Assembly: GCA_963804645.1 (NCBI GenBank)
Contig: CAWDRG010000008.1
Span: 1 to 64,000, forward strand
DNA from: an uncultured Bacillota bacterium
GTDB lineage: Bacteria; Sysuimicrobiota; Sysuimicrobiia; Sysuimicrobiales; Segetimicrobiaceae
Direction: 5' to 3'
DNA: 64,000 nucleotides
Positions within the stretch are counted from its first letter, which is position 1, and every line of letters begins with the position of its first letter. Below, one piece after another: positions 10,795-33,643 of the stretch. The position numbers and the translations under genes were made by a program. The notes under the pieces are model-generated. The model saw only the letters and a program-made list of their open reading frames with translations. It searched no databases and was not told the DNA's origin.

Positions 10795-11032
10795 CGCTCA
10801 CAAACCGCCCTGGCGCGCTTCCGGAATACGTCTCGACCGGCGGCGCGCCGCCGGCCACGTCGATGTGCCGCCGATTCCATTCGGGGTCGTCCAACTCCAT
10901 GCCCGGGCGCGCCGCCGCGCGGCACGACCCAGACCGGTGAGAGCCGACCGTTCGACTCGGCACACTATCGCGCGCCCCCCGAAACAGCCCAAAAAGCAGA
11001 ACGAAGTCAGAGCGATGCGTCCCGTCTCCGGC

Positions 11033-11110
11033 TTCGGCAGCCCCGCTGACCCAAGCATCTGGCCCGGTGGCTTTGCGTCCCTGGGTTACCCCAAGTTTGC
11101 CCTTATCGTG
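11033..11110 (-). ncRNA. c-di-GMP-I (GEMM) riboswitch upstream of the giant adhesin
   Basis: Minus strand reads AAGGGCAAACTTGGGGTAACCCAGGGACGCAAAGCCACCGGGCC...GGTCAGCGGGGCTGCCGAA, matching the GGCAAAC / GACGCAAAGCC / AGCGGG..GCCGA consensus. The position equivalent to Vc2 G20 is G (c-di-GMP type rather than cGAMP type). Confidence 0.92.
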
Positions 11111-19277: not shown

Positions 19278-20194
19278 GGGACCGGCACGCCCGCGGTCAG
19301 AAGGTCCACGCACGCCGGCGCCACGTCCGTGATCGCGCGCAGCCGCGGCGCCAGGTCCCGGCGGCCGGCGCCGATGAGCAGTGCCGGCACGGGATTGAGC
19401 GTGTGCGCACGGGTGCCCCCGTCCTCCAGATTCCCGTGGTCGCTCGTGACGAGCACGAGCGTCTCGCGGAGATCGGCCGCGTCGAGAATTCCGCCGAGCA
19501 GCGCATCCAGACGCTCCACGACCTCGATCGGGTCGCCGGCGCGCCCGTGCCCCGCCAGGTCCGTTTGAAAGAACTCGAACAGCGTGAACGCGTGCGTCGA
19601 CGAGATCTCCGCGAGCCGCCGCCCCGCGTCCTTGGGCGTCACCTCCGGCACGTCGATGCCGTGCCGTCCGAGGCCGGTGTTGGTGAGGTCGTGGAAGACG
19701 GCCTGGCCGGCACGGAGGTCCTCCAGCCCGCGGATGCGCACGCCGGCCTGAAGCGCGTTGAGCGTGACCGCCGCGTGCCGGAGCCGGCGGGACGCCACCG
19801 CCTCGAAGTACGCGTCGGTGTACGCGTTGGCTAGCGCCGTCGACACCCCGGCCTCGCCCAATCGGACGAAGACGCCGTGCGAGGCGAGGAGCGTCCGGAG
19901 GGTCGGGGTCGGATAGGCCGTCACGTGCCGGCCGAGCAGCGCGGGCGCGTTCTCGCCGGTCAAGAGCGCGGTCTGGCCGGTCGCGCTCTGCGGCAGCCCG
20001 CTCACGCCGAGGCGCGCGTCGAGCGGGAGGAGCGTCGCCGCGTCGGTTCCCACCGGATCGCGGCCGGCCAGCGGCTGACCCAACAGCGCCCGGAGCGTGG
20101 GGGTGCGTCCCCGCACGAAAGGGTTCGTCGCGGGGTCCATGTCGCCCAACCCCACGCCGTCCACGAAGAGAAACAGCATCCGAACGGACCGCAC
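19274..20194 (-). CDS. Alkaline-phosphatase-superfamily metalloenzyme (phosphoglycerate/phosphopentomutase-like)
   Basis: FVDGVGLG, LPQSATGQT, TDLAGH, TSDHGN and HTLNPVP motifs. TAGAAT lies 6 nt before the GTG. Confidence 0.8.
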   Translation of the reverse strand: MRSVRMLFLFVDGVGLGDMDPATNPFVRGRTPTLRALLGQPLAGRDPVGTDAATLLPLDARLGVSGLPQSATGQTALLTGENAPALLGRHVTAYPTPTLRTLLASHGVFVRLGEAGVSTALANAYTDAYFEAVASRRLRHAAVTLNALQAGVRIRGLEDLRAGQAVFHDLTNTGLGRHGIDVPEVTPKDAGRRLAEISSTHAFTLFEFFQTDLAGHGRAGDPIEVVERLDALLGGILDAADLRETLVLVTSDHGNLEDGGTRAHTLNPVPALLIGAGRRDLAPRLRAITDVAPACVDLLTAGVPVP

Positions 20195-20274: not shown

Positions 20275-21123
20275 TCAACGGCTGCCGGTGCGCCCGCGCT
20301 GATGATCGGCGAGCGGCCACCCGACGAGCTGGCCGACCGCGCGAACCCACGAGGTTTGTTCGTGCCCGCGGGGTTCGTCTTGAAATCGGTAGTCGCGCTT
20401 CCTGATGAGTTCCCCGAGCTCACCGCGCAGTGCGGTCAATTTGGCATCCGCGATCTCGAGCAGCCGGCACGCCTGCGCTACCGTCGCGGCACCATCAAGC
20501 GTGATGAGCAGGTCGGGCAGGCAGAGAAACGACGATCGATTCATCGCGGCGACCATGTCGGCGTCATCGAGATGCCGCAGCAGGGTGGAGACGTAGCGGT
20601 CCTCGGCTTCCCGGGCGATCTGGCAGGCAGGACACGGGACCTGCGCCACGCGCCTCCGCCGCAGCAGTTCCACAAGCCACACACGTCGTGCCCCACCACG
20701 CGCCCCGCGGGTACCGTGCCGCTGTGGCCCTCCAACCCGCTGGACTTCCCGAATGGCCTCCTGGGCGAGCGCAACCTGATCCTGGTAAAGGATGGCCGCG
20801 GCGAGACTGTCGCCCAGACGTATCAACGCCCATGCATGCTCGCGGCAGAACCCTCTGGAAAGGTCGAGCGTGTGGCGTAATCCTGGGTCATTGACCTGCT
20901 CGTAGAGCGCGTCATCGAGATAGCGGTGGACCGCCTCGTTGCGAAGATAGCACAGCGGGCACTCCGGCTGCCCCAGGGCCGAGATCACGCGATGGTAGAG
21001 CATGTCGCGCTGGGCCAGCGCACGCGGCTGCGGTCCCAACCATCGTAAGCGCCGCACTCGTGCCATGCACACCACGTCCTCTCCCGGCGTCGCGTGAGCG
21101 CTCGTGCTGACCGAGTCGCCCAC
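20275..21123 (-). CDS. DUF6062-like protein with two CxxC...C Zn-binding-like motifs (start may be ATG 21066)
   Basis: ECPLC...YEQVNDP...GFCREH and CPAC...FLCLPD; C-terminal IRKRDYRF..EP.G.E..SW.RA. Confidence 0.7.
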   Translation of the reverse strand: MGDSVSTSAHATPGEDVVCMARVRRLRWLGPQPRALAQRDMLYHRVISALGQPECPLCYLRNEAVHRYLDDALYEQVNDPGLRHTLDLSRGFCREHAWALIRLGDSLAAAILYQDQVALAQEAIREVQRVGGPQRHGTRGARGGARRVWLVELLRRRRVAQVPCPACQIAREAEDRYVSTLLRHLDDADMVAAMNRSSFLCLPDLLITLDGAATVAQACRLLEIADAKLTALRGELGELIRKRDYRFQDEPRGHEQTSWVRAVGQLVGWPLADHQRGRTGSR

Positions 21124-21152
21124 CCCATCCGCAGGGCCGTCTCCCCATCCTT

Positions 21153-22628
21153 CTACGCCGGACCGCGGCGGGGCCGCGTGTCATCGGGCCCGGCCGATCG
21201 CGTCCCCCGCATCTGCTCCAGCGCCGCACGCGCTCCCTCGATCTCTTCACGCGAGAGTGCCGCCAGTCCGTATCGCGCGCGGCTGTACGTCGCGGTCAGC
21301 GTATCGACGGCGTCCGCCACACTCGGGTGCGCCGCGCGCACGACGCCGGCAAACTCCGCGGGGGTCTCGCTCGTGTGCCTGGAACTCCCACGCGCGGCGG
21401 CCAGGGTCAGGAATTCCGCGTAGCATCGGCGGATCGCACCGGCCGGTCCGGTGCCGTAGTCCGCCGGAGGGCTGACACGCCACCCTCGCCGGCGCCGTCG
21501 AAACCACGCGCGCCATGACGCGCGCACGTCGGCCCACGACCAGACGGACTCGCGGCTCTCGTCGGCGGAACGACGCCGCCCCGGCTGCCCAAACCGAAAT
21601 ACCGACCGGGCGAGCCACAGTGATCCGAGGATGAGCAGCAGTACCGCCACGCCCCACCGGAATGCCATGGCGGCCTCCGGCGGGAGTCCGGTCGTCTGAT
21701 GAGCCGCCGCCTGCTGGATCCAGGCCGGAGCCAGCAAGGGTGACAGCGACGGATGGATCCCGGGATGGACGAGCCGTTGGAAGATCCACAGGACCCCCGC
21801 GACGATCACGCCGAGGGGAATTGCGATGACGTAGAGGATGACGAGCAGCAGGACGTTCGCGGCTGATCCCATCGCGTCCCACAACGCTTTGACATCGAGC
21901 CGGAGCGCCACGCCTGCCAGGGTGGCGATCCCGAGCAGCACGATCACCGCACCGCCAAGCACCCCATACCAACCGCCAGACACCCGGGTGTGGCGCGCGG
22001 ATGCGCGAGTGAGCCGCTGCACGCTCTCGAGCCGTGCTAACGGAAGCGCAAGCAAGCCCGCGGCGAAAAACACGAGCAGGTAGGGAAAGGCGGCGGTCGC
22101 CACCGCCGCCAAGGCGGCGACCGAGCTGCCGCACGCCATCAGCACCGCGAAGATGCCGAGCGCGGCGAGCCCGAGATTGAACACCGCGTCCACGTCATAA
22201 TAATCCAGGGTCGTGCGCCCGACGACCAGCCCGCGCCGCCACACGAGCACGGCCAAGAGCCATGCGGGCGCCGCCGGCCGCGACCCGGTCAAGGCCGACG
22301 CCGCGGTGCGCCACAGCGGACCAGGAACTCCCCCCCGCACGTCGCCGTACTGCCAGGCCACGACGCCCGCCGCGACCAACACGCCAAGAGCGGCCAGCAC
22401 CGCCCCCGCCCGGCGTTCGCCGGTCCTCGCGAGGAACCGCCGCGTGAGGAGCTGTGAACCAGCGAGCAACCCGAGAATGACGACCGGGTGCAGGAGGCTC
22501 GTGCCCGGAGGAAGCCAGATCGTCCCGGCGAGCAGCGCATACGGGGTTATCCACGCAGCATCCATGATGGCCACAAGTGACGGCAGCATCCAGCCCGCGG
22601 ATGCCTCCGGCCGCTCCGCGGCATTCAT
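21153..22628 (-). CDS. Multi-TM membrane protein with C-terminal DUF4129 domain
   Basis: Many hydrophobic helices; C-terminal IRRCY...SETPAEF...LTATYSRARYG. Confidence 0.8.
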   Translation of the reverse strand: MNAAERPEASAGWMLPSLVAIMDAAWITPYALLAGTIWLPPGTSLLHPVVILGLLAGSQLLTRRFLARTGERRAGAVLAALGVLVAAGVVAWQYGDVRGGVPGPLWRTAASALTGSRPAAPAWLLAVLVWRRGLVVGRTTLDYYDVDAVFNLGLAALGIFAVLMACGSSVAALAAVATAAFPYLLVFFAAGLLALPLARLESVQRLTRASARHTRVSGGWYGVLGGAVIVLLGIATLAGVALRLDVKALWDAMGSAANVLLLVILYVIAIPLGVIVAGVLWIFQRLVHPGIHPSLSPLLAPAWIQQAAAHQTTGLPPEAAMAFRWGVAVLLLILGSLWLARSVFRFGQPGRRRSADESRESVWSWADVRASWRAWFRRRRRGWRVSPPADYGTGPAGAIRRCYAEFLTLAAARGSSRHTSETPAEFAGVVRAAHPSVADAVDTLTATYSRARYGLAALSREEIEGARAALEQMRGTRSAGPDDTRPRRGPA

Positions 22629-22687
22629 CGGGGCGTCGTGCCCGGTGATCGTCGGTCACGACGGCTCGGCATGATCACCTCCGGAGA

Positions 22688-23920
22688 TCACGCCAGCGCG
22701 ACGTGGGTGACGTCGCGCCATGCCTCCTCACCCCGCACGTGAAACACCGGCACGCGCCCTCCGTCGAATGCGGGCGCGGCGGTGCCCACCACGACCAGAC
22801 CCACCCCGCGTCCCTGCTGTCGGGTCGTCTCGAGCAGCGTGAGCACCTCCTGGTCGGGGAGCGCCGTGATGGCGATCGCCGTGGTGCCCCACGGGAGTTG
22901 CGGGACCTCCGCGGCCAGCATGTCCGCGAGCGCGATCGTGGCCACAGGAACGACCGTCGCCAGCGCTTCCAGCACCGCCTGCAACTGCCGGGGATGCTCG
23001 CTGGGCGGCAGGGCGATCGTGGCTGCGCCAGTCCCGCGAACTCGGGGCCCGTTGACGTAGAGGCCCACCGGAAGCTTCTGCTCAGCGGCCCACGCGGCGA
23101 CGGAGGCGGCCACGATGATCGCGAGTTCGACAATGAGCGGATCGTAGCCGGCCCACCACGCCAGTCCACGGAGCGTGTACATATCGAGGAACAGCGCCAC
23201 ACGCGCATGGGTCGTGGGCTCGACCATCTTGACTTGGAGGCTGCGGAGTCGCGCCGAGGCCTTCCAGTGGATGCGGCGCACGGAATCGCCGGCTTGATAC
23301 GCACGCACCCCCGCCTGATAGGTGGGATCGTCCCACAGCGTGTGGGGGGTCACCACGTCCCCAAACGGGCCGCGGGCAGCCAGCCCGAGGTGGTCAAGCG
23401 GGACGATCCGCGGATACACCACGAGCCGATCCACGTCGGACAGCTCCCGCTGCTGTGTCGACAATCCGAATAGATCGCCGCTCCGGAGCGTCGCCGGACC
23501 AAATTCGTACAGACCGCGGTGGGTGCACCTGAGACGATACCGGCGGCGAATGCGTTCGTACCAGCGGGGTGAGCACAGGTGCACGAGCGTGCGGCGGCGT
23601 GGCTTGTACGAGCTGGTCAGGTCCGCGTCGAGAAAGGTCAACGCGTCCGGCACGTCATCCTCGACCTCGAGCCACGGGAGCGGCAGAAGCTTGCGATTCA
23701 CCACCTCGAGGACGAGATCAATTTCTTCGTCAAAGAAGGCCCGCTGCTGGCTGAGCGTCCGTCGATAGGTGACCCCAGAGAAGCAGGACCGCTGCCAGAG
23801 CCAGGACACCAACACGATCAACAGCCCGATCACGGCGAACACAAACAGCAGCGCCTGGCGCAGGACGAGTCCAACGAGGCACAGGAGCACGAGCAGGCTG
23901 ACCCAGGCCTCGGAACTCAC
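22688..23920 (-). CDS. DUF58 domain protein (VWA-like MoxR partner) with N-terminal TM helices
   Basis: RGLYEFGP..LRSGDLFG, VRAYQAGDSVRRIHWKASAR. Confidence 0.9.
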   Translation of the reverse strand: MSSEAWVSLLVLLCLVGLVLRQALLFVFAVIGLLIVLVSWLWQRSCFSGVTYRRTLSQQRAFFDEEIDLVLEVVNRKLLPLPWLEVEDDVPDALTFLDADLTSSYKPRRRTLVHLCSPRWYERIRRRYRLRCTHRGLYEFGPATLRSGDLFGLSTQQRELSDVDRLVVYPRIVPLDHLGLAARGPFGDVVTPHTLWDDPTYQAGVRAYQAGDSVRRIHWKASARLRSLQVKMVEPTTHARVALFLDMYTLRGLAWWAGYDPLIVELAIIVAASVAAWAAEQKLPVGLYVNGPRVRGTGAATIALPPSEHPRQLQAVLEALATVVPVATIALADMLAAEVPQLPWGTTAIAITALPDQEVLTLLETTRQQGRGVGLVVVGTAAPAFDGGRVPVFHVRGEEAWRDVTHVALA

Positions 23921-24894
23921 GACCCCGCCCCGCCGGACGGCAGCGGGATTTCGGCCGGGACCGCCACGCCGGCAACAATCTCCGTCACGATCTCCTGAAG
24001 GGCGGTGCCGCGGAGCCGCGTCTGCCCGGTCGGCAGCAACCGGTGGCCCAGGACCGGCGCGGCGAGCGCCTTGACGTCGTCCGGCACCACGAAGGACCGG
24101 CTGCGAACGGCCGCAAGCGCTTGGGCGGTGCGCCGCAGCGCGAGCGTCGCCCGCGGGCTGGCGCCGAGCGCCAGGGCGGGATGCCTGCGCGTCGCTTGGA
24201 CGACGGCGACGATGTAATCGCGCACGACCGGCGCCACCGTCACCGAACGGATGGCTCGAGCGGCCGCCACCAGCGTGTCCAGATCCGAGCAGGGCTGGAG
24301 GTCGTCGAGGGGTGACGCGCGCTCAAATCGGTCGAGGATCGCGGCCTCGTCCGCAGCGTCGGGATACCCAAGCGACAGGCGCATCAGGAACCGGTCGAGC
24401 TGCGCCTCGGGCAGCGGAAACGTGCCGACGAGTTCGATCGGATTCTGGGTGGCCAGCACCAGAAACGGGGGAAGGAGCGCCCGCGTCTCTCCCTCGACCG
24501 TGACCTGCCGTTCCTCCATCGCTTCCAGGAGCGCCGACTGCGCGCGCGGGGTTGCCCGGTTGATCTCGTCCACCAACAGTACGTGGCTGAAGATCGGCCC
24601 GGGATAAAATTGGAACGCGTCTCCCTGGTCGCGGTAGACGGACACGCCCAAAATATCGGTCGGGAGCAGATCGGGTGTGCACTGAATTCGTCGGAACGTC
24701 CCGCCGATGCTGCGGGCGACCGCCTTCGCCAGCATCGTCTTCCCGATACCGGGCACGTCCTCCAGCAACACGTGCCCTTCGCTCAGCAACGCGACGAGTA
24801 GCAACTCAATCACGGCGTCCTTGCCGACGATCACGCGACTCACCTGCTGCCGGATCCGTTCCGCGATCGCCCCGACCTCTGCGGGCGTGTTCAC
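23917..24894 (-). CDS. MoxR-family AAA+ ATPase
   Basis: HVLLEDVPGIGKT, RIQCTPDLLPTD, DEINRATPRAQSALLE, FPLPEAQLDRF. SD-like GGGGGTG precedes the GTG. Confidence 0.95.
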   Translation of the reverse strand: MNTPAEVGAIAERIRQQVSRVIVGKDAVIELLLVALLSEGHVLLEDVPGIGKTMLAKAVARSIGGTFRRIQCTPDLLPTDILGVSVYRDQGDAFQFYPGPIFSHVLLVDEINRATPRAQSALLEAMEERQVTVEGETRALLPPFLVLATQNPIELVGTFPLPEAQLDRFLMRLSLGYPDAADEAAILDRFERASPLDDLQPCSDLDTLVAAARAIRSVTVAPVVRDYIVAVVQATRRHPALALGASPRATLALRRTAQALAAVRSRSFVVPDDVKALAAPVLGHRLLPTGQTRLRGTALQEIVTEIVAGVAVPAEIPLPSGGAGS

Positions 24895-24910
24895 GGTCGC
24901 CACCCCCAGG

Positions 24911-24950
24911 AACAAAAATGACCTCTACAGCTGCGTCCTGTAGAAGCCAT
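24911..24950 (-). terminator. Intrinsic terminator overlapping the 3' end of the leftward fluoride aptamer
   Basis: ATGGCTTCTACAG-gacgcag-CTGTAGAGGTCAT followed by TTTTGTT. Confidence 0.8.
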
Positions 24951-25008
24951 CGGCCACCGAGACCTTTCGGCTACCCGCTCGGAGGCGGTTTCGGCGAGCT
25001 TCATCGCC
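24940..25008 (-). ncRNA. Fluoride riboswitch (crcB motif) upstream of the moxR operon
   Basis: Minus strand reads GGCGATGAAGCTCGCCGAAACCGC...GGCCGATGGCTTCTAC. P1 is GGCGA/TCGCC; pseudoknot is GAAGC/GCTTC. Confidence 0.85.
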
Positions 25009-25047
25009 GTCACATTGCGGCTATTCAATTGTCTCCCTGTCTACCCG

Positions 25048-25076
25048 ATTATACGAACCGCCCCAGACGCCGTCAA
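25048..25076 (-). promoter_or_regulatory. sigma70-type promoter for the leftward riboswitch/moxR operon
   Basis: TTGACG-17 nt-TATAAT. Confidence 0.8.
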
Positions 25077-25150
25077 ATTCGGCGGCGCGCCGGCGCGGGG
25101 TGTGTCGACGGGAATGCGCACGGCCGCCGGCGAACGCGAGGTGCCGGGGC

Positions 25151-25179
25151 TTGTCGCTGCACCGCTCTCCGGGTATAAT
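25151..25179 (+). promoter_or_regulatory. sigma70-type promoter for the rightward riboswitch/Ehr operon
   Basis: TTGTCG-17 nt-TATAAT. Confidence 0.75.
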
Positions 25180-25214
25180 CGGCGTCGTACGACGATCGCC
25201 CCAGTTCGGCTCTT

Positions 25215-25264
25215 GGCGATGAGGCTCGCCATATAACCGCGTGATCCACGCTGATAGCCTCTGC
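25215..25264 (+). ncRNA. Fluoride riboswitch (crcB motif) upstream of the Ehr/hyf-like operon
   Basis: GGCGATGAGGCTCGCCATATAACCGCGTGATCCACGCTGATAGCCTCTGC. P1 is GGCGA/TCGCC; pseudoknot is GAGGCT/AGCCTC. Confidence 0.9.
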
Positions 25265-25297
25265 TGCCCGCTCCGGGTCCGCAGAGGCTTTTGTGTT
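25256..25297 (+). terminator. Intrinsic terminator overlapping the rightward fluoride aptamer
   Basis: AGCCTCTGC...GCAGAGGCT followed by TTTGTGTT. Confidence 0.8.
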
Positions 25298-25362
25298 GTC
25301 TGGACGACCGCGGGCCACGGCGGCAGTGGACTGGCCGTGCCCTGAGGCGTCGGAGGTGTGGA

Positions 25363-26307
25363 GTGGACGACCGGATTCTTTTCAATATCATCCAAGCCCT
25401 GACCGTGCTGCTGTTATCGCCGCTGGTCAAAGGTCTCCTCGACCGTCTGAAAGAGCGCGTCCAGTCGAGGCGGGGCCCGACGATCTGGCAGCCGTACCGA
25501 GATCTGTGGAAGCTCTTCTCGAAGGACGAGGTCGTTTCGGACCAGAGCTCGTGGATCTTCCGAGCCGCTCCCTATATCGTGTTCACGATGCCGCTGTTTG
25601 TCACACTGCTCATCCCCGCGCTCACGGATTACCCGCTCTTTTTCGCGTTCATGTCGGACATGCTCGGGGCGGGGTTTCTGCTCGCACTGGGCGGGTTCTT
25701 CGCCGCCCTGGCGGCGGTGGACACCACCAACCCCTATGGGCCCATGGGCGCGAGCCGCACCCGGATGGTCGGATTTCTCGCCGAGCCGGTGTTCATGATC
25801 GTGTTCTTCACCATCTCGTTCGTGGCCGGCTCGACGATTCCGTACATCGTCCAGCAGCAGTGGGTCACCCCGCCGTCCAACTTCTTCGAGCCAGGCCACG
25901 TGCTGCTGATGATCGCCTTTTTGATGCTGCTGCTCGCAGAGACGGGACGGATTCCGGTCGACAGCGCGACGGGACATTTCGAACTCGCGATGATCGACGA
26001 GTCAAAAGGGCTCGAGTATTCGGGCCGCGGGGCCGCACTCATGAAGTGGGGCGGGGCGATGAAGTTCATGGTGCTCCAACTCGTCTTTCTCAACGTGCTC
26101 GTGACCCCGTGGGGCTTGGCCACACGGGCGTCGGTCGGCGCCGTGCTGCTCGCGATCCCGGTCGTCTTCCTGAAGATCGTCATCCTGCTGCTGGTGTTGA
26201 CGGCGATCGAGTCGTCCCTGGCCAAGCTCCGCCTGTTCCGCATTACCGAGTTTCTGGGCGCGGCATTTGTCATCGCGACGATCGCGATGATCACGCGCGT
26301 CTTCTAG
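25363..26307 (+). CDS. HyfC/HycD-like (NuoH family) membrane subunit
   Basis: QSRRGPTIWQPYRDLWKL, GPMGASR, AETGRIPVD and LEYSG motifs. SD GGAGG precedes the GTG. Confidence 0.9.
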   Translation: MDDRILFNIIQALTVLLLSPLVKGLLDRLKERVQSRRGPTIWQPYRDLWKLFSKDEVVSDQSSWIFRAAPYIVFTMPLFVTLLIPALTDYPLFFAFMSDMLGAGFLLALGGFFAALAAVDTTNPYGPMGASRTRMVGFLAEPVFMIVFFTISFVAGSTIPYIVQQQWVTPPSNFFEPGHVLLMIAFLMLLLAETGRIPVDSATGHFELAMIDESKGLEYSGRGAALMKWGGAMKFMVLQLVFLNVLVTPWGLATRASVGAVLLAIPVVFLKIVILLLVLTAIESSLAKLRLFRITEFLGAAFVIATIAMITRVF

Positions 26308-26322
26308 CCAAGGGGGCGACGT

Positions 26323-27000
26323 ATGGTGCAGTCGACCTGGATGCCCGCGCTCAATGATCTGGCGGGAGCGCTGTTTCTCCTCACCGCGGTCGGGCTCGTC
26401 GTGGTGCGGCAGGTGCAGGCGTGCCTCGCGGTATTCGTCCTCGAATCGGTCCTGCTCGGCGCCTCGGCGCTGATCTTGGGCACGGCGCTCGGGACACCGG
26501 ATCTCCTCGCCGTCGGCCTGATCACGATTGGGGTCAAAGCCATCCTGCTCCCGTGGCTGCTGCGCCGTACGGTCAGCGGTGAGATTTACACGCACCGCGA
26601 GCTCTCACAGCTGATCAACGTGCCCGCCTCCCTGCTGATCGCCCTCGGGCTCACGGTCGCGGCGTATTTGATCGCCGGGCCGCTCCTGTCACATCAGACA
26701 GAATTCGTCCGCGTGAATCTCCCGATCGGACTCGCGGGCCTGCTCCTGGGCGCGTTCACCTTGGTCACCCGCCGTGAAGCCGTCCCGCAGCTGATAGGGC
26801 TCCTGGCCATGGAGAACGGGGCATTCCTCGCGGGCGTGTCGATCGCCCCCGGCCTTCCGCTGATCGCCGAACTAGCGGCCTCGTTCGATGTCTTGGTGAT
26901 AGTCCTGGTCATGGGCATCCTCACCCAGGCGATCCACGAGCACGTCGGCACCACCGACATCGTGCACCTGGTGGAGCGCGGTGACGAGGGCCACGCATGA
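26323..27000 (+). CDS. HyfE-like membrane subunit
   Basis: Hydrophobic protein with KAILLPWLL and QLIGLLAMENG. Confidence 0.85.
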   Translation: MVQSTWMPALNDLAGALFLLTAVGLVVVRQVQACLAVFVLESVLLGASALILGTALGTPDLLAVGLITIGVKAILLPWLLRRTVSGEIYTHRELSQLINVPASLLIALGLTVAAYLIAGPLLSHQTEFVRVNLPIGLAGLLLGAFTLVTRREAVPQLIGLLAMENGAFLAGVSIAPGLPLIAELAASFDVLVIVLVMGILTQAIHEHVGTTDIVHLVERGDEGHA

Positions 27001-28442
27001 TGCTGCTCCTGATCCCCATCCTCCCGCTGCTGGCGGCGCTGTGCGCCCTGCTCCGGCCGCGGGGGCGCATCGCCGCGGCGGGGACGATCGCCGCCGCCGT
27101 GCTCGCGGCGGCGGGCGCCGCGCGCACGGCGCTGCTCGGCGCTGCCGGCACGACAATCGTGGCCGTGCCGGGGTGGATCGCCTGCGACGGTCTGAGCGCG
27201 CTCGTGCTGCTGCTCGTCGCCGCGGTCAACGTGAGCGCCGCGATCTTCTCGTGGGGCTACGTCCCCGCGAGACTCGCGCCGGCGGATCCGGCGGCGGAGC
27301 GGCGCTACTACATCAACTACAATCTGTTCGTCTCGTCGCTGCTCCTCGTGCCGCTGGTCCTCGAGCCCGCGCTGGTCTGGATCATGATCGAGCTGACCAC
27401 GCTCCTCTCCGTGTTCCTCGTCGGCTTTGATCGCACGCGGGGCGCGCTCGAGGCCGCCTGGAAGTACGTCGTCCTCACCCTCATGGGGGCGGCCATCGCC
27501 CTGCTGGGCGTGCTCCTCATGTATTGGGCGCTGTGGACCGCGGGGGGACGGGCGTTCACGTGGGATGGCCTCGTGGCCGCGGCCCCGCACATGCCGGCCG
27601 GCGTCATTCAGATGGCGTTTCTGCTGGTGCTGGTCGGCTTCGGGGCCAAGATCGGACTCGTGCCCCTCCACACATGGATCCCCGCGGCGTACAGTTACGC
27701 GCCCTCTCCCATCTGCGCGCTGCTGTCCGGCGCGGAGGCCACGGCGGTCTTGTATGTCGTGTTGCGCCTGGTCCCGGTGGCGGTCTCGGTGCCGGCCGTG
27801 CATGTCAGCGGCGCGCTCCTGGCCTTCGGCCTGCTGTCGGTGGCGGTCGCGGTGTTCCTGATCCTGCAGACGAGCGACTATAAGCGCCTGTTCGCCTACT
27901 CCACGATCGAGCACATGGGCATCATCCTGGTCGCCGCGGGCCTCGGGGGCGCGCTCGCGTCCTATGGGGCCGTCGCCCAGCTCCTCACGCACTCGGTCAC
28001 CAAGGCGTTCTGCTTCCTTGCCGTCGGGTCAGCGGTGATCGTCACGAACACCAGGGACACGGGCTCGATCCGGGGGCTCGTACGGACGTCTCCGGTCGCC
28101 GGGATCGCGCTGCTCCTGGGAGGCCTGGCCATCGCGGGAGCGCCTCCGTTCGCGGTCTTCCTCAGCGAGTTCGCGATTTTCCGCGCCGGGGTGTCCGAGG
28201 GGCACGCGGTCGTCGTCGCGCTCCTCGCCGCGTGTGTGATCGTCGGGTTTGTGGCCATTATGGTGCACGTGAACCGCATGGTGTTTGGATCTCCGACCGG
28301 CGCATCCGGGCGGCCACGCCTTCCCGCCGCCTGCGTCGTGGCGCTGGCCGCCGCCGTGGTCCCGGTGGTGGCGCTTGGCCTGTACGTGCCGCGTCCGGTG
28401 TTCGAGCTCCTGTCCGAAGCCGCGCGCTGGATCGGGAGGTGA
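26997..28442 (+). CDS. HyfF-like proton-translocating (Mrp/NuoN-like) subunit
   Basis: IELTTL, ALEAAWKY, GFGAKIGLVPLHTWIP, KRLFAYSTIEHMG. Confidence 0.9.
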   Translation: MMLLLIPILPLLAALCALLRPRGRIAAAGTIAAAVLAAAGAARTALLGAAGTTIVAVPGWIACDGLSALVLLLVAAVNVSAAIFSWGYVPARLAPADPAAERRYYINYNLFVSSLLLVPLVLEPALVWIMIELTTLLSVFLVGFDRTRGALEAAWKYVVLTLMGAAIALLGVLLMYWALWTAGGRAFTWDGLVAAAPHMPAGVIQMAFLLVLVGFGAKIGLVPLHTWIPAAYSYAPSPICALLSGAEATAVLYVVLRLVPVAVSVPAVHVSGALLAFGLLSVAVAVFLILQTSDYKRLFAYSTIEHMGIILVAAGLGGALASYGAVAQLLTHSVTKAFCFLAVGSAVIVTNTRDTGSIRGLVRTSPVAGIALLLGGLAIAGAPPFAVFLSEFAIFRAGVSEGHAVVVALLAACVIVGFVAIMVHVNRMVFGSPTGASGRPRLPAACVVALAAAVVPVVALGLYVPRPVFELLSEAARWIGR

Positions 28443-28449
28443 GAGAGAC

Positions 28450-30048
28450 GTGAGTCCTGCGCAGCCAGCCGAGATGAGGATCGCGGACGTGCGGTCCGCG
28501 GCCGCGTCGCGATGGATCGACGTGCGGGTCCGCGAGAACATGGCCCAGGACGTCGCGACGATCGAGTGCTCCCCCCAACGCCTGCGTCAGGTGTGCGCGT
28601 GGCTGTTCGCCGGTCTGGGCTGCGCGTTTGGAGGGCTGGTCGTCGAAGACACGCCCGCGGCCTGGGTGCTGCGGTATCTGTTCTACGGCCCCACGCCCGG
28701 GCAGATCCACGTGGTCACGGAGTGCGCCAAACCGTCGGAGACGGTACCCAGTATCAGCGTCGAGGTCCACGCCGCAGACTGGCATGAGCGAGAGGCGGAG
28801 GATCTCTTCGGCCTGGTGTTCGAGGGGCATCCGCGCCTGGGCGACTTCGTCCTCCACAACGACACGTGGCCGGAGCAGGTCGCCCCGATGCGCCGGGCCT
28901 TTGACCCGACCGCACGCCCGCCCTATCCGGCTCCTGACGACGCCTGGGCCCCGCTGCGACTCGTGGCCGAGCCCGGAGCCTTTCTCATGCCCGTCGGCCC
29001 GGTGTACTCCGGCATCACGGAAAGCGCTTTGTTTCTGCTCGAAACCGTCGGCGAGGACGTGATCCGCATCTTTCCCCGTCTCTTCTACAACTACCGAGCC
29101 ATTGAGAAGAGCGCCGAGGGCCGGACGGTGGACGATGCACTGCTGCTCGCGGAACGCTTTTCGGCCACCTCCGCGTTCGCGCACTCGCTCGCGTTCTGCC
29201 GCGCGGTCGAGACGATCTCGGAGGTTGTCGTCCCGCTCAGGGCGCAGGCGCTTCGCGTCCTGTTGGCGGAGCTCGAGCGGCTCCGTCACCATGCCGCCGC
29301 GATCGAAGCGATCTGCGACTCCACGGCCCTGGCCGTGGCGACCAGCCAGGCGGCGCTGCTGGAGGAAGACCTCCTGCGGCTGTCCGGGGCGCTCACCGGG
29401 CACCGGTATTTGTTCGGGCTGAACGTCCCGGGCGGTCTCGCGCGGGACGTGGCGACCGCGGCATGCCGCGAGGCCGCCGCGGCGGCGGCGGATGTCCTGC
29501 GGCGCCTCCGGGACCTCCGTCAGATGGTGCGATTCTCCACCAGCTTTCTCGACCGGATCGAAGGCGTGGGCGCGATCCCCGAAGTCGCGGCGCGGACCCA
29601 CGGGCTCGTGGGGCCCGTCGCCCGGGCCTCGGGCATCGTCCGGGATCTGCGCCGCGCGCAGCCGTACGCTGGGTACGAGCGACTCGCGTTCGAGGTGCCG
29701 CAGGAAACCGCCGGAGACGGATACGCCCGGCTCTTAGTGTTGTTCGCCGAAGCCGAACAATCCGCGGCCCTGATGCGCCAGAGTGCCGACCAACTCTCGG
29801 ACGGACCGGTCCGTGTGCCGGTGCGGACCGCATCGGGAGCGGCGTTTGGGTGGGCGGAGGCGCCGCGCGGAGCCACGTTCCATTGGGTCCGAATCGGCGA
29901 GGACGGACGGCTCGAACGCTATCGGGCCGTGACGCCCTCATTCATCAACTGGCACGGCCTGCATCTTGCGGCTGAGAACTTCGCGTTCCAAGACTTCCCG
30001 ATCATCCTGGCCACCCTCGGCCTGTCGGCCGCGGAGTGCGACCGCTAG
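28450..30048 (+). CDS. HyfG/HycE-like large subunit (NuoC+NuoD fusion) lacking NiFe-binding cysteines (Ehr type)
   Basis: ADWHEREAEDLFGLVFEGHP, GPVYSGITES and EAPRG motifs. The L1 site reads ERFSATSAFAH and the L2 site LGLSAAECDR, with no CxxC. Confidence 0.9.
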   Translation: MSPAQPAEMRIADVRSAAASRWIDVRVRENMAQDVATIECSPQRLRQVCAWLFAGLGCAFGGLVVEDTPAAWVLRYLFYGPTPGQIHVVTECAKPSETVPSISVEVHAADWHEREAEDLFGLVFEGHPRLGDFVLHNDTWPEQVAPMRRAFDPTARPPYPAPDDAWAPLRLVAEPGAFLMPVGPVYSGITESALFLLETVGEDVIRIFPRLFYNYRAIEKSAEGRTVDDALLLAERFSATSAFAHSLAFCRAVETISEVVVPLRAQALRVLLAELERLRHHAAAIEAICDSTALAVATSQAALLEEDLLRLSGALTGHRYLFGLNVPGGLARDVATAACREAAAAAADVLRRLRDLRQMVRFSTSFLDRIEGVGAIPEVAARTHGLVGPVARASGIVRDLRRAQPYAGYERLAFEVPQETAGDGYARLLVLFAEAEQSAALMRQSADQLSDGPVRVPVRTASGAAFGWAEAPRGATFHWVRIGEDGRLERYRAVTPSFINWHGLHLAAENFAFQDFPIILATLGLSAAECDR

Positions 30049-30057
30049 GAGGCGCGC

Positions 30058-30822
30058 ATGACCACCTGGGTGTGGAAGGGCCTGTCGACGCCGGTCCGCA
30101 CCACGCGATATCCGGCCGCGCCGGACGACACGCCGGGGACGTCGCCCGGCCGGCCGGCCGGCGGCGCGGTCAGCCCGACCACCGGCGCGGACTTGATCGC
30201 CCGCTGCCCGACCGGAGCCCTCACCGCGTCGGACGGGCACATCGTCGTGGATCCGGCACGCTGCGTGCACTGCTACCGCTGCGTCCGAGGCGTCGCCCAC
30301 CCAATCGGGTGGGAGTCGGGTTATGAATGGGCCCGGGCGACGTCCGGGGATGGACAGCCGAGCGCCCCGCTCGGTCGAGCGTTTCATCGATCCGCGCATA
30401 TCCTGGTCGTTGACGCCGGGGACTGCGGAGCGTGCCTGAGTGAGGTCAAACAGCTGAACAATCCCTACTACAACATGCACCGGCTCGGATTCTTCATCAC
30501 GCCGACGCCCCGGAACGCGGACATCCTGCTCGTGGTCGGGCCTGGGACCGCGAACATGCGGTGGGCGCTGCGGAAAGCGTACGACGCGATGCCGACGCCC
30601 AAGCGGGTGATCGCGGTCGGCACGTGCGCATCGAGCGGCGGCGTCTTCACCCCGAGTTTCGCGTCGGGGACGGGCATCCACGAGGTCCTGCCGGTGGACG
30701 TCATCGTGCCGGGCGCTCCTCCCCCGCCGCTCGCGATTCTGCACGGCTTGCTCGTGGCCACGGGACGGGCCGCGCCGGCCGAGCGGCCCACCGCGGCGGC
30801 CAACGGGACGGTCGCCCGATGA
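30058..30822 (+). CDS. HyfI/HycG-like (NuoB) small subunit with a fused N-terminal 4Fe-4S ferredoxin segment
   Basis: CPTGAL...CVHCYRC; GDCGACLSE, PRNADILLV, GTCA, VPGAPP. Confidence 0.88.
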   Translation: MTTWVWKGLSTPVRTTRYPAAPDDTPGTSPGRPAGGAVSPTTGADLIARCPTGALTASDGHIVVDPARCVHCYRCVRGVAHPIGWESGYEWARATSGDGQPSAPLGRAFHRSAHILVVDAGDCGACLSEVKQLNNPYYNMHRLGFFITPTPRNADILLVVGPGTANMRWALRKAYDAMPTPKRVIAVGTCASSGGVFTPSFASGTGIHEVLPVDVIVPGAPPPPLAILHGLLVATGRAAPAERPTAAANGTVAR

Positions 30823-32963
30823 CGCACGCCGAACCCTGGCTCCTCTGCTGCCTCGGCCTCTGCGCGGCCGGCATCGTCGCCAGCGCGGTGACCCCAGAAC
30901 GGCTCGTGCCCACGGTCATCGCGTGGATCGGTTCGGCGGCCTCGGTGCTCCTCATGGCGCTCGGCGGGTCGGTCGTCGTGGCCGGACACCCGATGACCCT
31001 CTCGCTGTGGTCGATCACTCCCACCGACGCGCTCGTCCTCAGTCTCGACCGCTTGGGAGGGGTGTTTGCGGCCGCCGCCGGCCTCGTCTGCCTGCCCGTG
31101 TCCATCTTCTCGGCAGGATACCTTGGGCGGTATCTGGGTCGCTACAGCCTGAGATCGTTCGGCATCCTGTACCACGCGCTGCTCGCCGCCATCGTCCTCG
31201 TGCTGGTCGCCGGCGACGTCCTGTCGTTCCTGCTGGCATGGGAAGCGATGGCGATCTCCAGTTACCTGCTGGTGAACTACGAGCACGAAGACCGGGAGCA
31301 CACGCGTGCCGGGTACCTGATGCTGGTCATGGGGGAAGCCGGCACCGTCGTGGCGATGCTGGGCCTGCTCGTCCTCGCGAACGGTGCCGGCGGCCTGTCG
31401 TTCGGCGCGCTCCGGAGCGCCGGCGCCGCGCTTGGAGGCGCCGGACGCTGGGCGGTGTTTCTGCTCACCTTCTTCGGGTTCGGCGTGAAGGCCGGCCTGC
31501 TGCCGAGCAGTTCATGGCTGCCCCGGGCGCATCCGGCCGCGCCGGCTAACGTGTCGGCGATCCTGTCGGGCGTCATCCTGAACCTCGGGCTCTACGGCAT
31601 CGTCCGCGTCAATCTCGACCTGCTGCCGGTCGATCGGGTCGGTCCCGGGGTGATCGTGTTGATCATCGGCAGCCTCTCGGCGCTCGTCGGCATTCTCTAC
31701 GCCACGACGCAGAACGATCTCAAGACCATGCTCGCGCACAGCTCCATCGAAAACATCGGCATCGTGGCCACCGGGCTCGGCGCGGGCCTGATCTTCGGCG
31801 CGTCGGGATATCCGGTGCTGGCGGGGATGGCCTACATCACCGCGTTCTACCACATGGTCAATCACGCGGCCTACAAAGGGCTCTTGTTCCTGGGCGCGGG
31901 CGCGGTCGACGTCGCGGCCGGAGCCCGGGACATGGACCGGCTCGGCGGGCTGATCCGCGGAATGCCGTGGACCGCGTTGTGCTTTCTCATCGGGGCGCTG
32001 TCGATCGCCGCGATGCCGCCGTTCAACGGGTTTGTCAGCGAGTGGCTGACGCTGCAGATGCTGCTGCGCAGCGTGGAACTCCAGGCGACGGTGGTGAAGA
32101 TCGTCTTCGCGCTGTGCGGGGCGGCGCTCGCCCTAACCTCCGCCCTGGCCGTCACGTGCTTCGTCAAGACGTTCGCGATGAGCTTCCTCGGCATGGCCCG
32201 GTCCGCCGGCGCCGAATCGGCGCGCGAGACCACCCCGGCCGCCCTCGCGGCGATGGGCCTGCTCGCGGTCGCGTGCCTGACGCTCGGGGTGATTCCCACC
32301 GCCGTCATTCCGGCCCTGGACCGCGTCGTCACCCCACTCGTCCACGCGAGCGCCGTGGACGCGCTGGTCCCGCCGTTCTTCCACCCCACCGTGCCCGGGC
32401 ACGCGCTGCCGCCCGCGTTCGTCGCGGACTTCCACGACCTCGGGGCCCAAGTCGGGCGACACGTCATCCCGGGGCCGGGCCTCGTCGTGATGCACCGCGG
32501 CGGGTTGAGCAACCCCGTGGTCTTCGCGATGTCGACGAGCTATCTGCTCCCCGTGCTGGCGCTCCTCCTGACCCTCCTCTACGCCGTCGTCCGGCTGGCG
32601 ACACGGGCCCGCGCGGTCGTCCGCCGCACGCGCTGGGACGGCGGACTGCCGCGGCTGGACGCGAGCATGACGTACACGGCGACCGGATTTTCCAACCCGG
32701 TGCGGGTCGTGTTCAACGCCGTGTTCCATCCGTCCGTCGATGACGACACGACGGAGGTGGTCGCGGAACACTTTCGCACCGCCGTCCGTCGGTCCCGGAG
32801 CGAAGTCTATCTGGCCGACCGGCTGCTCACGGAGCCCCTCGCCCGCTGGTCGCGCCGGTACGCGCGCGCCCTCGCGGGCATGCATCACGGCCGTCTCAAC
32901 GCGTACGCGGGGTACGTGCTGCTGACGCTCCTTGCCTGTCTGATCGCCGGCCGGTACCTGTGA
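30819..32963 (+). CDS. HyfB/HycC-like (NuoL/MrpA family) membrane subunit
   Basis: FLLAWEAM, GFGVKAG..WLPRAHPAAP, LAHSSIENIG, PPFNGFVSEW. ATGA overlap with the upstream gene. Confidence 0.9.
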   Translation: MTHAEPWLLCCLGLCAAGIVASAVTPERLVPTVIAWIGSAASVLLMALGGSVVVAGHPMTLSLWSITPTDALVLSLDRLGGVFAAAAGLVCLPVSIFSAGYLGRYLGRYSLRSFGILYHALLAAIVLVLVAGDVLSFLLAWEAMAISSYLLVNYEHEDREHTRAGYLMLVMGEAGTVVAMLGLLVLANGAGGLSFGALRSAGAALGGAGRWAVFLLTFFGFGVKAGLLPSSSWLPRAHPAAPANVSAILSGVILNLGLYGIVRVNLDLLPVDRVGPGVIVLIIGSLSALVGILYATTQNDLKTMLAHSSIENIGIVATGLGAGLIFGASGYPVLAGMAYITAFYHMVNHAAYKGLLFLGAGAVDVAAGARDMDRLGGLIRGMPWTALCFLIGALSIAAMPPFNGFVSEWLTLQMLLRSVELQATVVKIVFALCGAALALTSALAVTCFVKTFAMSFLGMARSAGAESARETTPAALAAMGLLAVACLTLGVIPTAVIPALDRVVTPLVHASAVDALVPPFFHPTVPGHALPPAFVADFHDLGAQVGRHVIPGPGLVVMHRGGLSNPVVFAMSTSYLLPVLALLLTLLYAVVRLATRARAVVRRTRWDGGLPRLDASMTYTATGFSNPVRVVFNAVFHPSVDDDTTEVVAEHFRTAVRRSRSEVYLADRLLTEPLARWSRRYARALAGMHHGRLNAYAGYVLLTLLACLIAGRYL

Positions 32964-33055: not shown

Positions 33056-33643
33056 TCAGCGCAGGCGCCGCGAGAGAAAGGACGACGCGCGATCGACAAA
33101 CCGCCACGGCACCTCGACCGCCGAGGAGATCCCGATCCGGGGCGTGCGGGCGATCGCCTCGGGCGGCGTGCCGCGCCCCACGTAGAGCGGTCCCGCGACC
33201 AAGTCCGATCGGTTGAGGCCGAGCGTGATGCCGAGCGCCTGCGTGAGCCGTCCGGGTCCACTGGCGAGGAGGCGCGCGTCCGCGGTGCCCCGGCGCCGCC
33301 GCATCAGCGCGAGCCCCTCCACCGGCTCGAGCGCGCGCAGCAGCACGGCACCGGCGCGCCCTTCGGCCTCGGTGACCACGTTCACGCACGCGTGCGCCCC
33401 GTAGCTGAAGTAGACGTACGCGGTGCCCGGCCGGCCCCACATCACCTCGCTGCGGGCGGTCCGGCGGTAGGCGTGACTCGCGGGGTCCCGCGCCCCGAGA
33501 TACGCCTCCACCTCGACAATCCGGCCGGCGGCGCGCCCCGCGGGGGTCTCGTGGACTAAGTAGCAGCCGAGCAGATCGCGCGCGACGGCGAGCGTCGGAC
33601 GCGCGAAAAACGTCCGGGGCAGCCGCGCATACGCGCGAGTCAC
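33056..33643 (-). CDS. mpg: DNA-3-methyladenine glycosylase (MPG/AAG family)
   Basis: [43 protein letters not shown]. Confidence 0.92.

Follow-up and report, generated by a model that had tools for sequence, protein, structure and literature searches.

Fluoride riboswitches mark genes that are needed under fluoride stress, and most of these genes beyond the two exporter families are unexplained. A stretch of 64,000 nucleotides (nt) from an uncultured Bacillota bacterium of the order Sysuimicrobiales (assembly GCA_963804645.1, contig CAWDRG010000008.1, positions 1 to 64,000; here called the window) raises the question of what such riboswitches serve where no exporter gene is found. In the spacer at 24895-25362 a sequence-only reading of this DNA had placed two back-to-back fluoride riboswitches of the crcB motif, the one on the minus strand in front of genes for a MoxR-type ATPase and for DUF58, DUF4129 and DUF6062 proteins, and the one on the plus strand in front of six hyf-like genes. 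Our analysis recovered both riboswitches, indicated that the six genes encode an Ehr-type complex without the metal site of a hydrogenase, and led us to regard as probable a fluoride-induced regulon of two separate operons, in which the Ehr complex supports ion and pH homeostasis.

Two divergent fluoride riboswitches

A whole-window Rfam scan gave three matches at or above the gathering score, two of them to the fluoride riboswitch model RF01734 (gathering score 34 bits). These two lie on opposite strands of the spacer, each downstream of a promoter-like sequence and overlapping a predicted terminator:

24934 to 25017, minus strand: fluoride riboswitch aptamer 1 (crcB motif; RF01734, 38.2 bits, E 5.3e-07)
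25048 to 25076, minus strand: sigma-70-like promoter of the minus operon (TTGACG-17-TATAAT, 11 of 12 matches)
24917 to 24951, minus strand: predicted intrinsic terminator hairpin of leader 1 (terminator scan; fold -19.7 kcal/mol, z -2.65), followed by UUUUUGUU
25206 to 25270, plus strand: fluoride riboswitch aptamer 2 (crcB motif; RF01734, 36.5 bits, E 1.8e-06)
25151 to 25179, plus strand: sigma-70-like promoter of the plus operon (TTGTCG-17-TATAAT, 10 of 12 matches)
25256 to 25299, plus strand: predicted intrinsic terminator of leader 2, stem AGCCUCUGC/GCAGAGGCU, followed by UUUUGUGUUG

The aptamers that had been read by eye at 24940-25008 and 25215-25264 fall inside the two Rfam matches, which both exceeded the gathering score when the crcB model was run on both strands. 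The two promoters were present exactly as quoted, and a promoter scan over 17 kb found 4 promoter-like sites where 0.8 were expected from shuffles. Every invariant core nucleotide and the pseudoknot are retained in both aptamers, the first of which carries a 27-nt insertion in the P3 loop. Its pseudoknot is GAAGC/GCUUC, and that of aptamer 2 is GAGGC/GCCUC. The hairpin of leader 2 (25256-25289) folds at -24 kcal/mol (z -4.82), and none of 200 shuffles did as well; a simple terminator scan had missed it, probably because the 16-nt apical part between the 9-nt arms exceeds the loop limit of 3-8 nt. Both terminator stems incorporate the 3' pseudoknot strand of their own aptamer, which bears out the overlap that had been described. 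The predicted layout of both leaders is the classical one of a terminator-type ON switch. Because terminator and aptamer compete for this strand, termination should be suppressed once fluoride is bound and each operon turned on, as judged from the anatomy of the leaders and the known behaviour of the riboswitch class.

Compensatory pairing within the two pseudoknots had also been proposed, and it was borne out in an alignment of both aptamers with 40 from related genomes (n=42). All five pseudoknot pairs were 100% paired and two of them covaried (GC 27 and AU 15 in one; AU 26, GC 12 and GU 4 in the other), with GAAGC/GCUUC, GAGGC/GCCUC and GGAGC/GCUCC as the variants of the lineage. Over the whole alignment 98.2% of cells were paired, and double changes were seen in 8 of the 13 pairs of P1, P3 and the pseudoknot, which joins the P1 loop to the 3' tail. 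None of 500 shuffles reached the covariation score of the alignment, with the structure derived from the same sequences and one control leaning towards it. Orthologous leaders in front of the same genes in three relatives (G001, G004 and G011) scored similarly or better. A search of the whole host assembly (G000; 5.3 Mb, 22 contigs, 96.77% complete) returned the same two fluoride riboswitches and no others.

Sequence libraries were also compared with the locus. A 254-nt contig from an RNA library matched 24777-25030 without mismatch and spans aptamer, terminator and the 5' end of moxR, and two further RNA libraries held exact moxR pieces. This is a weak hint of expression, compatible with a read-through transcript or with DNA carry-over. 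The RNA libraries X12, X17 and X18 gave only short imperfect pieces on the Ehr operon or on DUF58-DUF6062, and such small libraries cannot show silence. Most of the stretch was present in six peat-metagenome DNA runs.

The plus-strand operon

The plus-strand switch is followed by six genes:

25363 to 26307, plus strand: predicted Ehr subunit, NuoH/HyfC-like membrane protein (Pfam NADHdh 1.7e-33)
26323 to 27000, plus strand: predicted Ehr subunit, HyfE-like membrane protein (NCBIfam 'hydrogenase 4 membrane subunit' 3.9e-20, under its cut-off)
26997 to 28442, plus strand: predicted Ehr subunit, HyfF-like and antiporter-like, NuoN/M type (Pfam Proton_antipo_M 1.1e-46)
28474 to 30048, plus strand: predicted Ehr large subunit, NuoC-NuoD/HycE-like fusion (Pfam Complex1_49kDa, Complex1_30kDa)
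30058 to 30822, plus strand: predicted Ehr fused HyfH/NuoI-like and NuoB/HycG-like subunit (Pfam Oxidored_q6 4.4e-23, Fer4 fragments)
30819 to 32963, plus strand: predicted Ehr subunit, HyfB-like and antiporter-like, NuoL type (NCBIfam 'hydrogenase 4 subunit B' 1.3e-169, under cut-off; Pfam Proton_antipo_M 4.3e-53)

All ten genes of the two operons were as the sequence-only reading had named them. Its choice of 25363-26307 as the first plus-strand frame was right; the longer open reading frame (ORF) at 25293-26357 overlaps this NuoH-like frame, has no family match and was rejected as spurious.

The best match of the operon in the PDB was the formate hydrogenlyase of E. coli (Hyc/Hyf, group 4a, 7Z0S), with E 2.2e-61 for the large and 4.1e-27 for the small subunit, and the two systems share the subunit types HyfB, C, E, F, G, H and I. 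The ligands of the nickel-iron (NiFe) site, however, were lost. When the large subunit was aligned to HycE (7z0s_E), the stretch 'rvCgiCgfahs' read 'rfSatSafahs', so that the N-terminal CxxC became SxxS. The C-terminus reads ...LSAAECDR and lacks a CxxC, which we take to be the canonical motif of NiFe hydrogenases at this end. The NiFe cysteines were missing in 15 of 15 homologs from several phyla, which carry the motifs AERFxATSAFAH and LSVAE[NC]DR instead. HypD (PF01924) was not found in the host assembly, in a search that matched in 4 of 14 control genomes. In the small-subunit part 'ipgCpp' of HycG became 'vpgApp', and the proximal [4Fe-4S] cluster keeps three of its four cysteines.

The fused subunit has a single-cluster, ferredoxin-like N-terminal part. 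Across 74 family members it carries seven nearly invariant cysteines (four in 74 of 74, the others in 73, 74 and 71 of 74), and no column at the canonical fourth position of the proximal cluster reached 30% cysteine. The operon differs from Hyc/Hyf in its fused HyfH and HyfI with one ferredoxin cluster left, in having no formate dehydrogenase in the operon, and in the sites just described: Ser/Ser for the N-terminal NiFe cysteines, the C-terminal SAAECDR, alanine for the fourth proximal cysteine, and HypD not found.

The operon was also compared with Pyrococcus furiosus MBS / Mbx (6U8Y) and with complex I. The HyfF-like protein found its best PDB match in MBS subunit H (E 9.9e-31), and the likeness to both systems extends to the modular architecture and to the charged residues of the antiporter-like subunits. 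The subunit set of the operon is much smaller, at six genes. In a short alignment to Nqo4 of T. thermophilus (2fug_4), the two quinone-ligand positions, presumably H38 and Y87, read Glu and Ala, so the His/Tyr pair of complex I is missing at the positions that we assume. No NuoE, NuoF or NuoG gene, which would form the input module of complex I, was present in the operon or in the conserved core of the 80 related loci described below.

The remaining parts are strongly conserved. In the NuoH-like subunit 144 of 314 columns were at least 97% identical in 68 sequences, and the protein is 70-79% identical across phyla. Invariant residues in 68-74 sequences are E132, K218, H225, H332, K336 and E391 of the HyfF-like and E142, K224, H349, K353 and E408 of the HyfB-like subunit. 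The conservation of all three subunits and of the cysteines argues for a working, ion-coupled and probably still cluster-bearing complex with a predicted substrate pocket of a new kind.

In the accessible parts of two papers (PMC6349859, PMC12342949), Ehr complexes are defined as relatives of group 4 hydrogenases that have Mrp antiporter-like subunits and lack the Ni/Fe-coordinating residues; their function is described there as unknown, and 'putative formate hydrogenlyase' is given as the earlier name. The plus operon has this subunit set and lacks the NiFe ligands. We conclude from its predicted proteins that it encodes an Ehr-type complex and not a hydrogenase, in agreement with the sequence-only reading, which had called it hyf-like or Ehr-like.

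Riboswitch control of the Ehr family across phyla

Among 8000 candidates scored, the large subunit had 2613 relatives at E <= 1e-20, most of them about 60% identical, and many carry the JGI label 'formate hydrogenlyase subunit 5'. The loci of the best 80 of 463 relatives were then compared, with one genome per species scanned. By their labels they came from Acidobacteriota, Desulfobacterota/'delta proteobacteria', Planctomycetota, Verrucomicrobiota, Nitrospirota, NC10, Gemmatimonadales, Alpha- and Gammaproteobacteria, Spirochaetia, Dadabacteria, Binataceae and Bacillota. Among the genes present, the order C-E-F-G-HI-B was kept in 80 of 80 loci. The riboswitch-linked clade includes four loci from Nitrospirota metagenome-assembled genomes (MAGs).

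For the riboswitch search we built a covariance model of our own (R1) from the 42 lineage riboswitches, with a same-strand cut-off of E <= 0.05. The 66 loci with at least 400 nt of DNA upstream of the first gene were testable. A same-strand fluoride riboswitch was found at most 1.5 kb upstream of the first Ehr gene in 62 of these 66. R1 accounted for 56 of them (44 at E <= 0.001). Outside this lineage the sensitivity of R1 is below that of Rfam, and Rfam recovered, at or above the gathering score, 6 of the 10 loci that had no R1 match (L062, L076, L082, L089, L114 and L118). Of the four loci left, two (L086 and L095) show a riboswitch at the gathering score 2.0-2.3 kb upstream, outside the 1.5-kb limit, L069 has only a match of 32.6 bits at 3.3 kb, and L099, covered by the R1 scan only, has no R1 match. 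In seven loci from seven higher-level taxa, Rfam placed a gathering-score riboswitch upstream in 7 of 7. Its distance to the first gene is at most 300 nt in six of them and 1 kb in L060, where crcB stands in between.

A divergent minus-strand riboswitch at most 2 kb upstream was present in 15 of 66 loci, and the back-to-back design is therefore common. Both members of such pairs were confirmed by Rfam in 4 of 4 Acidobacteriaceae loci.

The loci were further inspected for neighbouring genes within 10 kb. A crcB-like ORF was found in 23 of 80, where it immediately follows the final Ehr gene or closely precedes the operon behind a riboswitch of its own. CrcB was present in 36 of 50 Ehr-bearing genomes. 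Because of these two counts we regard Ehr as an accessory of fluoride defence and not as a general replacement for the channel. The idea that Ehr stands in for a missing exporter thus fails for the family.

Other arrangements were seen at these loci as well. A second HyfB-like gene directly follows the six-gene operon in L055, L087, L092, L093, L099, L108, L109, L120 and L125, and some Ehr complexes may have three antiporter-like subunits. Fluoride islands with at least four riboswitch matches in about 20 kb occur in L060, L071, L083 and L119; L060 has five riboswitches on one strand, four of them at the Rfam gathering score. Many of the 80 loci are on MAGs from bog, palsa or SPRUCE sites. Acid habitats favour the entry of hydrogen fluoride (HF), and such a habitat may be the cause of rich fluoride regulons.

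Exporters and the fluoride regulon of the order

No known fluoride exporter had been noticed in the window, and this holds for the whole host assembly, in which neither CrcB (PF02537) nor Voltage_CLC (PF00654) was found; the same searches matched in 11 and 12 of 14 control genomes. A set of 61 genomes of the same order was then examined. It includes the host and G034, which is flagged as unpublished and gave no matches. A fluoride riboswitch (cut-off E <= 0.001) was present in 34 of the 61, CrcB in only 5, and a close copy of this Ehr operon in only four (G000, G001, G004 and G011).

Genes driven by riboswitches in these relatives encode Na_H_Exchanger proteins (PF00999), MFS transporters, MutS_V-only proteins, DUF6062, an H+-pyrophosphatase, the MoxR operon and Ehr. 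The exchanger is the commonest first gene behind the riboswitch. Its clade (about 410 aa; for example L044:8677-9906(-)) occurs in 18 of 61 genomes and stands directly behind a riboswitch in 17 of these 18; in the exception, G027, it follows DUF6062 and no riboswitch was detected. Since CrcB is missing from 56 of 61 genomes, the actual fluoride or pH defence of the order may lie with this clade. Such Na+/H+ exchangers likely share a role in ion and pH homeostasis with Ehr, from which they differ as single-subunit secondary transporters.

Paired MutS_V-only proteins of about 510-590 aa, without mismatch-recognition or Smr domains by Pfam, were seen behind fluoride riboswitches of their own (L032:6756-9886(-), L042:12021-13628(+), L040, L041 and L046) and also beside Ehr operons in other phyla. 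They are probably the 'mutS' class noted in 2010.

The minus-strand operon and DUF6062

Four genes follow the minus-strand switch:

23917 to 24894, minus strand: MoxR-type AAA+ ATPase (Pfam AAA_3 9.7e-61, AAA_lid_2 1.8e-21)
22688 to 23920, minus strand: DUF58 protein (Pfam DUF58 4.9e-11) with a hydrophobic N-terminal anchor, transmembrane-like at residues 23-41
21153 to 22628, minus strand: polytopic membrane protein with C-terminal DUF4129 (Pfam DUF4129 2.1e-14, residues 402-471) and six transmembrane-like segments
20275 to 21123, minus strand: DUF6062 protein (PF19538; Pfam DUF6062 3.9e-18, 66.2 bits against a gathering score of 27)

The MoxR frame most likely starts with the GTG at 24894, after GGGGGTGG. 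With an ATPase of AAA_3 core and AAA_lid_2, DUF58 in the next gene and then a membrane protein, the set resembles MoxR/DUF58/vWA-type operons such as RavA-ViaA, from which it differs as a separate paralog clade under a fluoride riboswitch. The MoxR search covered 94 genomes, of which the 33 beyond the 61 were not scanned for riboswitches; G034 and G128 are among the 94 and enter the denominators only. The riboswitch-linked MoxR forms a distinct clade, with copies 74-79% identical to that of the window in G001, G003, G006 (two copies) and G011. A riboswitch match lies directly upstream of 6 of 6 copies of this clade, the window's included. Identity to the clade does not exceed 62% for the remaining MoxR genes of the phylum, and those of them in the 61 scanned relatives had no adjoining riboswitch match.

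No published account of DUF6062 was found. At E <= 0.001 we counted 2410 cluster representatives of the family. As the conserved domain begins near residue 38, the true start of the window protein may be the ATG at 21066. In 95 aligned sequences C39, C74, H77, C145, C148 and C182 are invariant, and C36 and H185 are at least 90% conserved; the protein is predicted to carry two Cys3His sites in an internal repeat. Its AlphaFold model (predicted local distance difference test, pLDDT, 90.6) has eleven helices and is all-alpha. Fold searches gave no convincing solved structure: the best Foldseek hit had E 0.62, and the best VIA-align hit (Z 5.3 over 54 residues) is in the range of generic helical matches, which does not prove a new fold. 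A cluster search of a protein atlas returned only DUF6062 clusters and fusions to dynamin-like GTPases, the latter in some clusters from Acidobacteriota and Actinomycetota.

In the order of the window, 14 of 16 DUF6062 genes lie downstream of a same-strand riboswitch match (the exceptions are in G027 and G039), and most of these 14 adjoin Na+/H+ exchanger or MFS genes. At the Ehr loci of other phyla the association recurs. DUF6062 ORFs were present at 22 of the 80 loci. For 18 of the 27 ORFs of this kind a same-strand riboswitch match was found at most 3 kb upstream, and in Acidobacteriaceae the divergent riboswitch opposite Ehr is followed first by DUF6062. DUF6062 is thus a recurrent, near-obligate member of the fluoride regulon in this lineage.

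Two further kinds of gene were seen beside DUF6062. In several families of the order, the first gene between riboswitch and DUF6062 encodes a soluble and probably coiled-coil protein without a Pfam match, about 160-170 aa long (L037:12325-12840(-), L038:12148-12648(-), L047:10337-10810(+) and L039:8314-8835(+)); this ORF of about 165 aa has no homolog in the window. In G028 an H+-translocating pyrophosphatase (L047:12077-14437(+); PF03030, E 3.8e-244) follows DUF6062 behind a fluoride riboswitch.

Linkage of the two operons

It had been proposed that both operons are fluoride-induced and work as one module. For the first part, both were found behind bona fide aptamers with predicted ON platforms. 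A survey of genomes gave less for the second part. Only G001, a genome of the same genus, repeats the back-to-back arrangement of MoxR and Ehr. The two operons of G011 share a contig at a distance of about 7 kb, and a separate riboswitch precedes each. In G003 and G006 the riboswitch-MoxR operon was present and no Ehr gene was found. In G004, which is only 65% complete, Ehr stands opposite an iPGM-like gene and MutS2, with no MoxR operon. Among the 80 Ehr loci a MoxR operon occurred within 10 kb in one, that of G011. Since no Ehr gene was found in G003 and G006 and 79 of 80 Ehr loci are without a nearby MoxR operon, we take the two operons as separate members of a regulon that share a spacer here.

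Neighbouring genes and other features of the window

Two genes follow DUF6062 on the minus strand:

19274 to 20194, minus strand: iPGM-like protein of the metalloenzyme superfamily (Pfam Metalloenzyme 1.2e-16)
16908 to 19313, minus strand: full-length MutS2 endonuclease with Smr domain (NCBIfam TIGR01069 mutS2 3.1e-257)

The iPGM-like gene lies 80 nt past DUF6062 on the same strand, with no terminator-like site predicted between them; it is possibly the fifth gene of the minus operon, and MutS2 is possibly co-transcribed as well. The pair of an iPGM-like gene and a downstream full-length MutS2 is conserved (window 16908-20194(-); L045, L034 and L050) and adjoins fluoride-riboswitch loci in G004, G006 and G019. 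In G019 the pair follows a riboswitch, an exchanger and a gene of the chromate-transporter family on one strand.

The third Rfam match of the window is unrelated to these operons. It is a cyclic di-GMP (c-di-GMP-I-GGC) riboswitch aptamer (RF03167) at 11032-11110(-), with 66.9 bits against a gathering score of 59. At 33056-34315(-) the methylpurine-DNA glycosylase domain covers only residues 236-410 of a 419-aa ORF, and the long N-terminal extension may be an artefact of ORF calling in GC-rich DNA.

Discussion

The link between fluoride riboswitches and this type of operon is older than the sequence-only reading had implied, and its novelty had been overstated. In the accessible part of Weinberg et al. 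(PMC2864571), crcB-motif RNAs are tied to 'formate hydrogen lyase' genes, in print since 2010, and a 2024 review citing Baker 2012 (PMC11139923), in the part available, counts formate hydrogen lyase among the enzymes most commonly associated with the riboswitch. The aptamer class, the terminator-type ON design and the associated genes ('formate hydrogen lyase', mutS-type genes, Na+/H+ antiporters and pyrophosphatase, as named in the accessible parts of PMC2864571 and PMC11139923) all place the locus within the known regulon of RF01734. It differs from that regulon in that the host has neither CrcB nor CLC-F and in that one switch controls MoxR-DUF58-DUF4129-DUF6062. The Ehr-riboswitch link is already known, under a name that the sequence does not bear out. 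No mention of fluoride was found in the Ehr literature examined, and no paper was found that joins Ehr, NiFe and fluoride, nor a relevant one on fluoride riboswitches together with hydrogenases. Likewise no publication was found on MoxR, DUF58 or DUF6062 with fluoride riboswitches, and the gene lists of Baker 2012 may name them. What is new is an exporter-less genome whose whole fluoride response consists of Ehr and the MoxR/DUF6062 operon, the identity of the regulon's 'formate hydrogen lyase' as a NiFe-less Ehr clade under near-universal riboswitch control, and the assignment of DUF6062 and the MoxR paralog to the fluoride regulon.

In the reading that we favour, the spacer would hold two independent divergent units, each with a promoter, a fluoride aptamer and an intrinsic terminator; going by the leaders, both should bind fluoride and be induced by it. 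The first switch would gate a membrane-anchored MoxR AAA+/DUF58/DUF4129 remodelling set and then the zinc-type DUF6062 protein, and the iPGM-like gene and MutS2 may share this transcript. The second would gate the six-subunit Ehr complex, a relative of complex I and group 4 hydrogenases. We infer that this complex moves H+ or Na+ and so would hold membrane potential and pH homeostasis against HF influx and enzyme inhibition. Its role would parallel that of the riboswitch-controlled Na+/H+ exchangers and H+-pyrophosphatase elsewhere in the regulon, and it would also help Fluc channels where these are present. The MoxR set would repair or assemble membrane or metal-dependent complexes under fluoride stress.

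Several observations weigh against this reading. Both aptamers are only 2-4 bits above the threshold, and no electron donor module was found beside the operon in any of the 80 loci. The pocket of the large subunit matches neither hydrogenase nor complex I, and the function could be a non-pumping one. The role of the MoxR set is argued from family annotation only. A complementarity of Ehr with the exchanger clade, which was not found in any of the four Ehr carriers (0/4 against 18/57), is suggestive only, as the genomes are related and non-independent and the difference is not statistically meaningful. Finally, CrcB is missing in 14 of 50 Ehr genomes and in the host, which leaves room for a direct role in export.

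If Ehr were itself a system for extruding F- or HF, driven by the proton-motive force or by redox, it would be the sole exporter of the host, and the anion could pass through the antiporter-like subunits or through the former quinone/NiFe cavity and the NuoH-like tunnel. The host has no CrcB or CLC and its only two fluoride riboswitches are both at this locus; riboswitch control at 62 of 66 loci, a strongly conserved pocket unlike those of hydrogenase and complex I, and a NuoH-like subunit 70-79% identical across phyla all fit this proposal. However, we consider it unlikely. CrcB also occurs in 36 of 50 Ehr-bearing genomes, and its presence in the same island or operon at 23 of 80 loci makes more sense if Ehr is an accessory than if it is a redundant exporter; the analysis revealed no anion-binding feature, and the antiporter-like subunits retain Lys, Glu and His of the cation/proton type. 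Rather doubtful, too, is a fluoride-insensitive metabolic bypass, in which Ehr as a ferredoxin-linked or other donor-linked oxidoreductase would re-oxidise carriers and conserve energy while fluoride blocks enolase and phosphoryl-transfer enzymes. The seven nearly invariant cluster cysteines in 74 sequences and the ferredoxin-like N-terminus suggest that electron entry was kept, and there is a parallel in the riboswitch-controlled enolase and pyrophosphatase copies of other bacteria. The 2024 review, in its accessible part, reads enolase, pyrophosphatase and 'formate hydrogen lyase' as metabolic acclimation (PMC11139923). Nevertheless, no donor or acceptor module is conserved beside the operon, the NiFe ligands are missing, the quinone positions (by the residue numbers that we assume) read Glu and Ala, and one ligand of the proximal cluster is missing across the whole family.

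The two operons could also form one machine, with MoxR-DUF58-DUF4129, perhaps with DUF6062, devoted to assembling or repairing the Ehr complex. In E. coli the MoxR-family RavA-ViaA pair has been reported to interact with respiratory complexes, which counts in favour of such a pairing. So do the back-to-back operons in the window and G001, their position on the same contig in G011, the presence of DUF6062 at 22 of 80 Ehr loci, and the four Acidobacteriaceae loci in which a divergent riboswitch at the Rfam gathering score stands before DUF6062 opposite Ehr. We nevertheless hold a single machine to be improbable, as G003 and G006 carry the riboswitch-MoxR operon with no Ehr found, a MoxR operon is missing from the 10-kb surroundings of 79 of 80 Ehr loci, and DUF6062 also stands behind riboswitches in genomes without Ehr. 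It is very improbable that the aptamers are decayed or answer another ligand and that the gene neighbourhood is coincidental. The scores close to the threshold and the unusual 27-nt insertion of aptamer 1 would fit decay, but all invariant core nucleotides and the pseudoknots are retained, comparable or higher scores were obtained for the orthologous leaders before the same genes in G001, G004 and G011, and the link with the same operon holds across phyla.

A fluoride-induced regulon with Ehr in ion and pH homeostasis remains the reading that we prefer. A stronger proposal is rather doubtful: that fluoride defence is the dedicated task of this Ehr clade, without NiFe or quinone site, in at least a dozen higher-level taxa, either by energy-coupled extrusion of F- or HF in a new way or by fluoride-induced generation of the membrane potential that drives Fluc, and that the host relies on Ehr solely. 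If this were true, it would give the Ehr complexes their first physiological function, and DUF6062, as a new all-alpha fold with two predicted Cys3His sites, and a fluoride-specific MoxR paralog would join fluoride biology. DUF6062 and the Na+/H+ exchanger clade (17 of 18 carriers beside a riboswitch) are flagged as near-obligate members of the regulon in this lineage. What the riboswitch field calls 'formate hydrogen lyase' the hydrogenase field calls Ehr, and joining the two makes the role of Ehr directly testable.

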